From: Escherichia coli
Lineage (GTDB): Bacteria > Pseudomonadota > Gammaproteobacteria > Enterobacterales > Enterobacteriaceae
Assembly (NCBI RefSeq): GCF_003018115.1
Contig: NZ_CP027457.1
Reading direction: 5' to 3' (one strand)
Length of the DNA stretch: 64,000 nt
Both the position numbers and the translations under genes were made by a program. Under the pieces are notes generated by a model. It was not told the DNA's origin and did no database searches. It saw only the letters and a program-made list of their open reading frames with translations. Shown in pieces: positions 49,510 to 57,641 of this stretch (within the stretch, counting starts at the first letter, position 1; each line of letters starts with the position of its first letter).

Positions 49510-49865
49510 GCACTCTCCTTGAGTTTTATGCAGGTGTTAATTAGCGGGCAATTGTACCCTGGTTAAGCCTCGGGTGGCAGCATCAGGTCTTGTATGGAAA
49601 AGCATATCTTTGTAAAGCGGAGGTAATTGCTGGCCTTCAGGCGTGGGCAAACCGCGGCAAGTGGCGATCGAGTTAATATTTGCGTAGCGAAAATATTTAA
49701 AAATTGATTTAAATCACGTTAACCAGGATTCTCAATGCAACTTCTAAATTAATCCAGATCAATAAAGGGTGAATTATCATATGTAATGTGATCTATGTAG
49801 GATCATTTGTTACTCCAATGTAGGTATATTCGTCACGTTTTTATAACCATAACGACGGAGCGGAT

Positions 49866-50519
49866 ATGAAAAAGTTAACAGTGGCGGCTTTGGCAGTAAC
49901 AACTCTTCTCTCTGGCAGTGCCTATGCGCATGAAGCAGGCGAATTTTTTATGCGTGCAGGTTCTGCAACCGTACGTCCAACAGAAGGTGCTGGTGGTACG
50001 TTAGGAAGTCTGGGTGGATTCAGCGTGACCAATAACACTCAACTGGGCCTGACGTTTACTTATATGGCGACCGACAACATTGGTGTGGAATTACTGGCAG
50101 CGACGCCGTTCCGCCATAAAATCGGCACCCGGGCGACCGGCGATATTGCAACCGTTCATCATCTGCCGCCAACACTGATGGCGCAGTGGTATTTTGGTGA
50201 TGCCAGCAGCAAATTCCGTCCTTATGTTGGGGCAGGTATTAACTACACCACCTTCTTTGATAATGGATTTAACGATCATGGCAAAGAGGCGGGGCTTTCC
50301 GATCTCAGTCTGAAAGATTCCTGGGGAGCTGCCGGGCAGGTGGGGGTTGATTATCTGATTAACCGTGACTGGTTGGTTAACATGTCAGTGTGGTACATGG
50401 ATATCGATACCACGGCTAAGTATAAATCTGATGGTCGTAAACTGGCTAAAGGCAGTTATAGCGACAATGTACGCCTTGATCCGTGGGTGTTTATGTTCTC
50501 TGCAGGGTACCGTTTTTAA
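49866..50519 (+). CDS. ompW: outer membrane protein W
   Basis: 217-aa ORF with signal peptide MKKLTVAALAVTTLLSGSAYA and C-terminal aromatic beta-barrel signature (SAGYRF). Confidence 0.93.
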   Translation: MKKLTVAALAVTTLLSGSAYAHEAGEFFMRAGSATVRPTEGAGGTLGSLGGFSVTNNTQLGLTFTYMATDNIGVELLAATPFRHKIGTRATGDIATVHHLPPTLMAQWYFGDASSKFRPYVGAGINYTTFFDNGFNDHGKEAGLSDLSLKDSWGAAGQVGVDYLINRDWLVNMSVWYMDIDTTAKYKSDGRKLAKGSYSDNVRLDPWVFMFSAGYRF

Positions 50520-50524
50520 TTTGC

Positions 50525-50558
50525 TCTGCAAAACCTCTGCAAAACTCTTCTGCAAAAC
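50525..50558 (+). repeat. three direct repeats of tctgcaaaac immediately after the ompW stop (putative attL / integrase-binding region)
   Basis: tctgcaaaac at 50525, 50536 and 50549, followed by ctggtca..tgaccag hairpin plus T-run overlapping the int stop. Confidence 0.5.
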
Positions 50559-50564
50559 TGGTCA

Positions 50565-51695
50565 TCAAATGACCAGTTTTTTCCATTCCTTACCGCGTGC
50601 GTCGTTGTAAATATCGGTCATTTTTTGATTCGAATGGCCCAGCAAAATTTTGGTATCAATTCCCTGTTCTCTGAACAATCGTTCTGATAAAGATCTCTGC
50701 TCATGGAAAGAGGGTGGGGTGCCATTAGCACGCCAGTTGTAATCCACAGAATCCCGGGCTTTTTTAAATGCAACGGTTAACGTTGCTGGCTTAACCATCC
50801 CGCCGCGCTTAGCTGTCCCTTTAGCATGATGGTGGTGCAATAGCCACGGACTAAGAACGCAATCGCGACAGGATGACACCACATCATCCAGGGTGAGATT
50901 TAATTTATCGCAACGCAGAGCCAGAGGGATGGCAATCCGGGTTCCTGTTTTTTGCTGTTCGACATGAAGATAACCATCCCTGATATCCGAAAATTTCATT
51001 TTGCAAATATCTGAAAGGCGCTGGCCTGTCATCAGTGCCAGCAGCATACCACGCTGTAAAAAGTAACCATCCTTTTCCGCTGCATTATAAATCATCATCC
51101 ACTCATCAAAGGTCAGTCGTTGCCGTGATATCCGTACCTGTGGTTTTTTTGCCGATTCTGCAGGGTTAAAGCCTGGCGGGACATCGCCCGTTTGCTGGGC
51201 CTCCCGGAAAACATCAATCAGTACTTTCCTGAAAATTTGTCCCATTCTGTTATGTCCTTTTGCCTTGTAATCTTCCAGCACCGATACCACATCTTTTACG
51301 GTTATGGCATCTAAAGGTCTGGTACCAAAACGTTCATCAAATACCCTGAGAGGGGATGCTTTCTGTTTCAGTGTGTTGAGTTTGATCTCTCCGTTTTCAT
51401 ATCTTTCCTGTTGAATTTTTCGGTAACTATTCAGAAAAACCGAAACGGTTGATGAACCACCGGTATCACGAATAATTTTCTCCTGCAGAGTGAGCATTTG
51501 TTCCATTTGTTGCCTGGCAAGACGGCTGTTCGCTTCTGCTGCAATAGCTTCTGCCTGTTTCTGGTCAATACTGCCGAGCCCGTGATTTTTTCCTGTTATG
51601 GGATGCCTGTAACGCCAGTAAACTTTGTTATTTCTTTTGTCAAAATACGGAGATAATCCCGGAACTTCAGTTTTATATTTTCGTGGGCGCGCCAT
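50565..51695 (-). CDS. int: phage integrase (tyrosine recombinase, lambda Int-like)
   Basis: 376-aa ORF; N-terminal arm-binding-like region, C-terminal catalytic region with R...HxxR...Y pattern (HEQRSLSERL...LGHSNQKMTDIY). Confidence 0.9.
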   Translation of the reverse strand: MARPRKYKTEVPGLSPYFDKRNNKVYWRYRHPITGKNHGLGSIDQKQAEAIAAEANSRLARQQMEQMLTLQEKIIRDTGGSSTVSVFLNSYRKIQQERYENGEIKLNTLKQKASPLRVFDERFGTRPLDAITVKDVVSVLEDYKAKGHNRMGQIFRKVLIDVFREAQQTGDVPPGFNPAESAKKPQVRISRQRLTFDEWMMIYNAAEKDGYFLQRGMLLALMTGQRLSDICKMKFSDIRDGYLHVEQQKTGTRIAIPLALRCDKLNLTLDDVVSSCRDCVLSPWLLHHHHAKGTAKRGGMVKPATLTVAFKKARDSVDYNWRANGTPPSFHEQRSLSERLFREQGIDTKILLGHSNQKMTDIYNDARGKEWKKLVI

Positions 51696-51921
51696 CTTCC
51701 AGTATCCTCTTCAAAGCAGGGTGATCTGTGGCGATCACTTCCGGCTTGTTTACCATTCCGACAAAGCGAGCTCGAGGATCCACTCGCCAGTGTCTTCCAA
51801 CTTTTTTGGGGAGAGGAAATATCATTCCGGCTTTAGCGTATTTACTTAACGTGCCCGGAGTCGGGACCGGGTCACTGAATTCCTCTTTTGCCCACTCAGT
51901 GAGAAGAATAAGTCTTGCCAT
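51673..51921 (-). CDS. xis: excisionase (Xis-like)
   Basis: 82-aa ORF overlapping int start by 23 nt; lambda-Xis-like winged helix (EWAKEE...IFPLPKKVGRHWRV). Confidence 0.8.
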   Translation of the reverse strand: MARLILLTEWAKEEFSDPVPTPGTLSKYAKAGMIFPLPKKVGRHWRVDPRARFVGMVNKPEVIATDHPALKRILEDGAPTKI

Positions 51922-57136: not shown

Positions 57137-57641
57137 GCAGGCACGCGATGCCCTGGATGCCTGGATAAGCCGACCAGGAATGACGCAGGAGCAGGCGACG
57201 ATATTAATTACTGAAGCCTTCTGGGCTCTACAGGAACGCCCGAACATCGATGTTCAGCGTGTCACGCTTGATGATGGCGGGGTTGATCAGCGTGCGCTTG
57301 GCGTTAACCGGGTGAAGATATTCGAACGCTGGAAGGCTATCGACACCAGGGATAAGCGTGAAAAATTCACGGCGCTGATTCCGGCAATTATGGAGGCTAT
57401 CCGGATTAGTGATTTCAGGTTGTACCGCGAAATTACTGACGGAAAAAGCATTACGTACATGATTGCCGGGTTAAACAAAGAATATGGCGATGTGGTGGAG
57501 TCCGGGCTGCTTTTTGCAGATCCAGCTGTTGTGGAACGTGAGACAGACGAGCTTATAGAAAAAGCAATCGCTTTCAAGCGTGCCTATCGTCACCAGTACC
57601 AACAAAAAGCCGGATGGAATTATGAGCCTTCTTTTTGCTGA
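57120..57641 (+). CDS. YdaT-like protein (cII-position, Rac YdaT family)
   Basis: 173-aa ORF in the position of Rac ydaT; shares the ...ALIPAIMEAI... segment as recalled. Confidence 0.6.
   Translation: MKITLEQARDALDAWISRPGMTQEQATILITEAFWALQERPNIDVQRVTLDDGGVDQRALGVNRVKIFERWKAIDTRDKREKFTALIPAIMEAIRISDFRLYREITDGKSITYMIAGLNKEYGDVVESGLLFADPAVVERETDELIEKAIAFKRAYRHQYQQKAGWNYEPSFC

Follow-up and report, generated by a model that had tools for sequence, protein, structure and literature searches.

The stretch of DNA analysed here (64 kb; hereafter, the window) holds ompW on the plus strand and, convergent with it on the minus strand, a lambda-type integrase gene, int, beyond which lie an excisionase gene and then an exonuclease gene (Table 1). 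The chromosomal flank corresponds to the E. coli order tonB-yciA-yciB-yciC-ompW. In Pfam, residues 2-71 of the int product match PF09003, the lambda Arm-DNA-binding domain (E 5.7e-22), and the catalytic domain PF00589 is also present; its catalytic R/K/H/R/H/Y columns are the same as those of lambda Int, and its N-domain gives a weak match to the lambda Int N-domain structures 1KJK and 2WCC.

The int product is 96.5% identical to the integrases of PPompW_699, PPompW_14040, and PPompW_EH2246, and the homologous locus in Sakai is annotated as 'prophage Sp9'. Judged by its sequence, the element is PPompW, a known lambdoid prophage that integrates in ompW (Sp9 in O157 Sakai). A previous study described PPompW as a lambda-like prophage in the ompW gene of STEC and reported its excision, circularisation, attP, and a 121-bp att duplication, with no mention of arm-type sites or a terminator (Nakamura et al. 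2021, PMC8112680). The 21-bp attB-in-prophage sequence from the same study (PMC8112680) is absent from the window. The junction, with int adjoining ompW, is present in 1,725 of the 5,426 complete E. coli genomes. The closest genome, NZ_CP027586, is 99.5% identical to the window; its prophage is about 59 kb long and ends at attR beside yciE. As attR lies outside the 64-kb window, its sequence was taken from NZ_CP027586. Beyond the window (L005 40852-42006 and L006 6214-10206), the NZ_CP027586 prophage also contains an ompC porin gene among the tail genes and, close to attR, a YadA-like gene and one for an S6-family (SPATE) peptidase.

Table 1. Features at the ompW-int junction, in window coordinates
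Feature	Position	Strand	Remarks
ompW ORF	49866-50519	+	Pfam OmpW PF03922, E 2.7e-78; collinear with K-12 ompW
ompW part from host, up to attL identity segment	49866..50390	+	
attL identity segment (core/crossover region), TGGTACATGGATATCGATACCAC	50391..50413	.	contains dyad TGGTA...TACCA; host-type left, phage-type right
Substitute 3' end of ompW from phage (last loop, last beta-strand, and stop)	50414..50519	+	15 bp longer than common variant
P' arm-type site 1 (putative), CTCTGCAAAAC	50524..50534	+	
P' arm-type site 2 (putative), CTCTGCAAAAC	50535..50545	+	
P' arm-type site 3 (putative), TTCTGCAAAAC	50548..50558	+	its AAAAC doubles as outer left hairpin arm
Terminator-like hairpin, 12-bp stem, loop CAA, A-tract left, T-tract right	50554..50582	.	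fold energies, z-scores
int, lambda-type tyrosine integrase, 376 aa, arm-binding N-domain	50565..51695	-	PF09003 and PF00589
xis (excisionase)	51673..51921	-	Pfam PF07825 Exc, 4.9e-07; annotated excisionase in homologous genomes

The attachment core and the exchanged end of ompW

The sequence TGGTACATGGATATCGATACCAC is common to attL in the window, attR (L006 10948-10970, NZ_CP027586), the empty attB site of K-12, and two contiguous attP-like loci (L036 and L048). The comparison places strand exchange within or beside this segment. A shared core is what the first-pass annotation of this DNA had proposed to look for by comparing both prophage ends with an empty ompW, and finding it bears out the view that the site is attL.

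Directly after the core, the sequence departs from that of K-12, while the host version is displaced to attR. This segment is identical across the prophage-bearing genomes despite their differing upstream ompW alleles. Since the boundary between host and phage sequence falls at the core, the phage carries a replacement ompW end of about 106 bp, and everything to the right of 50413, including the repeats and the hairpin described below, is phage DNA. The idea that the phage rebuilds the 3' end of its target gene is correct as to the rebuilding, but not as to the place, because the rebuilt segment lies upstream of the interval that had been flagged and is not identical to the host end.

Among about 3,700 empty-site E. 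coli genomes, the repeats are absent and the alignment stops at the ompW stop, which indicates that the repeats are phage-borne. The empty site of K-12 has unrelated sequence after the ompW stop, including its own terminator, GACCCCGTAATATACGGGGTC. Repeats downstream of ompW in a genome without the prophage, which the first-pass annotation had named as the observation that would speak against its reading, were not encountered in these alignments.

The exchange also affects the protein. By standard barrel topology, the loop between the last two OmpW beta-strands is outward-facing. This segment reads KSDGRKLAKGSYSDN in the window, where OmpW has 217 aa, KLGGAQQHDS in the host, KSGVTTVKDS in EDL933/Sakai-type prophages, and KFNGTPVKDA in the phage-borne end of L048, and at least three phage-borne versions of the loop were counted; a natural long loop allele, KSNGAVLPAGRYSDN, is present in the prophage-free strain A42. 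It seems unlikely, on the whole, that the prophage alters OmpW as a phage or colicin receptor, or the expression of OmpW, through the swapped last loop and a phage-made 3'UTR (three CUGCAAAAC units and the hairpin). If it did so, this would be a case of lysogenic conversion riding on the attachment site.

In the IMG/VR contigs with L036 and L048, the P arm, core, and P' arm are contiguous inside larger prophage contigs. This layout is in keeping with prophages inserted in tandem, or inside another prophage, at ompW-like copies of attB, as described by Nakamura et al. (PMC8112680).

The triple repeat and the hairpin beside the int stop codon

Three exact copies of TCTGCAAAAC are located on the plus strand (50525-50534, 50536-50545, and 50549-50558), between the ompW stop codon (TAA, 50517-50519) and the int stop codon (TGA, minus strand, 50565-50567); these are precisely the positions (50525, 50536, and 50549) at which three copies of tctgcaaaac had been noted between the two stops. 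The start-to-start spacing of the copies is 11 and 13 bp, the third copy ends 7 bp before the int stop, and no other exact copy occurs in the 64-kb window. Triple clusters of a 10-mer, defined as three non-overlapping copies within 40 nt, appeared in none of 300 first-order Markov simulations, with an analytic expectation of about 1e-5 per window. The repeat units do not differ among PPompW variants, in contrast to the spacer separating sites 2 and 3, which is variable. In E. coli MS 21-1 (L127, NZ_CP146670 2352835-2353165), the CTCTGCAAAAC unit is present in four copies instead of three, indicating that the array is able to gain an 11-bp unit.

The only further triple 10-mer cluster in the window is a 12-bp tandem array located at about 58087-58122. 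It belongs to a larger region (57951-58129) made up of five iteron-like GGTCAAAATG repeats, at intervals of about 23 bp, and then four tandem units of 12 bp (ACAGAGAATACA). The region lies within an ORF (57580-58599) just upstream of another ORF (58606-59346) encoding a DnaC/IstB-like ATPase, and it is probably the replication origin of the prophage inside its initiator gene.

The repeats are followed by a hairpin with the core arms ctggtca (50558-64) and tgaccag (50570-76) and a T6 run (50577-82), all of which had been noted before; folding extends the stem to 12 bp, AAAACUGGUCAU/AUGACCAGUUUU (50554-50580), with four G-C pairs in the 7-bp core, and the structure overlaps the int stop. The final int codons (...KKLVI*) make up the right arm and the T-run, with the int stop codon at the loop. 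The predicted energy is -14.4 kcal/mol on the plus strand and -14.9 kcal/mol on the minus strand (z about -5 to -5.7), and none of 200 shuffled sequences was as stable. The hairpin is invariant in all PPompW variants; for this reason, and because half of it is int coding sequence, no covariation is seen. A consensus terminator scan did not flag the hairpin, as the extended stem probably consumes part of the T-run, and no other hairpins were found between the ompW stop and int.

The native terminator of ompW has been displaced by integration to attR, about 59 kb away. Because of this displacement, and because the sole hairpin follows the repeats with T6 on the ompW strand, the hairpin and T-run are probably a replacement ompW terminator. 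A phage-supplied terminator had been suggested earlier, and a structure of this stability with a T6 run in phage DNA makes that suggestion plausible. Given the symmetry of its A-tract and T-tract, the hairpin may also end the convergent int transcript, which is less certain than termination of the ompW transcript because the U-run on the int strand is 4 nt.

Probable arm-type integrase sites and competing explanations

Related integrases were drawn from phage records, IMG/VR, and one genome per species. Most IMG/VR loci end exactly at the int stop and are unusable for the P' arm, so flanks were obtained from a scan of genome contigs instead, giving 38 relatives with enough flanking sequence. 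A triple NNNNNCAAAAY repeat is present just 3' of int in 35 of these 38 relatives (about 37-100% Int identity), with a spacing of 11-12 and 13 bp, and the target genes of the relatives with the repeat are ompW, icd, potC, a 5'-nucleotidase gene, and a rhodanese gene. The repeats fall into three motif classes that track the Int lineage and are all found in E. coli phages, namely CTGCAAAAC (contained in the repeats of the window), CCCCAAAAC, and CTCCAAAAC. This distribution makes it likely that the motif is read by a phage protein rather than a host factor. The Int N-domain has class-specific residues (G13/S15/Y17/R28 versus N/Y/K/Q); as the motif classes coincide with Int clades, this covariation does not count as independent evidence. 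Outside this motif family, Pseudorhodoferax aquiterrae (L122, Int 33% identity) has three copies of TTGGCGCA at the same position downstream of int, beside a tRNA-like sequence, so the three-site P' layout reaches beyond the CAAAAC motif.

The P arm, across the core from the triple repeat, holds a fourth motif copy, which has the same orientation and lies at -145..-136 from the core centre in three diverged variants. For comparison, P1 of lambda occupies -142..-133 from the core centre. The homology among the three diverged P arms begins at the fourth copy, so this copy is the outer boundary of attP, the part played by P1 in lambda. The P arm also has an exact IHF consensus, AATCAATCAGTTA (a match to WATCAANNNNTTR), at -117..-105, which is kept in the variants. 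The icd phage 4A7 (Int 51% identical) is arranged in the same way: its P arm has one copy of its repeat motif and, 29 bp further along, an IHF site, and the triple repeat precedes int. No P2-like inverted arm site was found at up to two mismatches within 300 bp of the P arm, where a more degenerate site may exist, and no IHF consensus was found between the core and the P' sites.

The P' sites lie at +123 from the core in the window variant, +108 in the common PPompW variant, and +54 in lambda. The difference between the two PPompW variants is due to a 15-bp indel in the loop-coding segment (1.4 helical turns), and the greater distance relative to lambda is due to the substitute ompW coding sequence, about 106 bp, that lies between. 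These distances, like the two negative searches above, weigh against the arm-site reading given next.

Taken together, the interval is very probably the P' arm of a lambda-like attL of the PPompW/Sp9 type in the 3' part of ompW, with the repeats as arm-type Int sites and the hairpin as a replacement terminator. By analogy with lambda, we infer that the repeats are sites for the integrase N-terminal domain, equivalent to P'1-P'3. The earlier proposal that the repeats are integrase binding sites is thus the best-supported reading, favoured by the P-arm copy at the position of lambda P1 and by the family-wide triple repeat at the 3' end of int. According to the lambda model, Int would hold the P' repeats and the P1-like site with its N-domains and the core with its catalytic domains, thereby linking arm to core sites within the recombination complex; this complex would serve integration and, when Xis takes part, excision. 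IHF would bend the P arm and Xis would direct excision; the P1-like copy and the IHF site on the P arm, which lie at attR outside the window, would complete the set of sites.

The repeats and hairpin might alternatively work mainly as RNA, either as a phage-made ompW 3'UTR or as an sRNA derived from it, with three CUGCAAAAC motifs and the terminator binding a target RNA or a chaperone. Since they follow the ompW stop and precede the only terminator-like hairpin, the repeats would be part of every ompW mRNA in a lysogen, and a stable hairpin with a U-tail does resemble the 3' end of an sRNA. However, 4A7, L072, L093, L098, and others have a strong terminator between the target gene and the repeats, which puts the repeats outside the target-gene transcript; a further copy of the motif is located on the far P arm at the lambda P1 position, and the motif tracks the Int lineage and has no Rfam match (a scan of 49700-51000 at E<=10 returned only noise). 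A mainly RNA-level role is accordingly improbable, while an RNA-level function of the repeats could exist as a secondary role. A lead towards the e14 co293 / NC-SV svsR sRNA was dropped, as svsR is located at the 3' end of cI and not at an att site.

It is also very unlikely that the repeats bind another protein instead of Int, such as excisionase or a host factor (IHF or Fis). Xis of lambda binds direct repeats about 10 bp apart and a xis gene is present here, but Xis repeats in lambda-type sites cluster on the P arm only, whereas the present motif is found on both arms. A host factor is difficult to reconcile with three motif classes that follow the Int lineage in phages of the same host, and IHF in particular with a motif that is unlike its consensus and with the separate exact IHF match on the P arm. 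The copy number in MS 21-1, with its four units, could be taken to mean that the repeats are a functionless, neutral product of replication slippage. This explanation is hardly credible, because the equally spaced triple repeat persists across genera and target genes with Int identity down to about 37%, because the spacers vary and the units do not, and because an exact P-arm copy at a fixed offset cannot come from local slippage.

Comparison with known attachment sites and terminators

The kind of element described here is textbook. The literature searched, outside which lie the original phage 21/e14 att papers, gave no account of the specific motifs of this integrase clade, and a full-text search with the motif strings returned nothing relevant. 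The motif, spacing, and layout of putative arm-type sites are now given for a widespread clade that includes PPompW/Sp9, phage 21/e14-like icd phages, potC phages, and others, and the ompW version of the module is carried by about one third of complete E. coli genomes. The triple repeat beside the int stop marks the exact P' end of such prophages and the single P-arm copy the other limit of attP. The value of this is practical (annotation, prophage boundaries, and integration vectors), and the understanding of site-specific recombination is unchanged.

The module resembles that of phage lambda in having a heterobivalent tyrosine integrase with a PF09003 N-domain, xis adjoining int, three tandem direct arm-type repeats directly 3' of the convergent int end, and one copy, equally oriented, about 140 bp to the far side of the core with an IHF consensus after it. 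It differs from lambda in its motif (TCTGCAAAAC here, C/AAGTCACTAT in lambda) and in its spacing (11/13 bp here, 10/11 bp among the three direct repeats P'1-P'3 of lambda, where P'3 overlaps the int stop). Neither an inverted site like P2 of lambda nor an H' consensus was found here, and the integrase is just 36% identical to lambda Int.

Bidirectional intrinsic (Rho-independent) terminators share with the hairpin a stable stem-loop, flanking A- and T-tracts, and, in this case, a position between the convergent ompW and int genes; the present hairpin is unlike them in that the T-run and one half of the stem code for Int, and in its short U-run of 4 nt on the int strand.

With PPompW/Sp9, the element shares the locus, an integrase 96.5% identical, and the confirmed duplication of the ompW 3' end at attL and attR, and the published 121-bp att duplication (PMC8112680) matches the core and the substitute ompW end. 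The window differs in representing a less common variant, with a duplicated segment 15 bp longer and an OmpW of 217 aa.

The phage 21/e14-type icd modules, represented by Escherichia phage 4A7, and the potC phage vB_EcoS-640R1 belong to the same Int clade (51% and 44% identity, respectively). Like PPompW, they insert within the 3' end of a gene and supply a substitute for that end, and the int stop is preceded by a triple repeat of CAAAAC type. The repeat motif reads TTCCCCAAAAC or TCTCCAAAAC, in contrast to TCTGCAAAAC in PPompW. In many relatives, 4A7 among them, a GC-rich terminator separates the substitute gene end from the repeats; PPompW lacks one at that place, and its hairpin comes after the repeats and overlaps the int stop.
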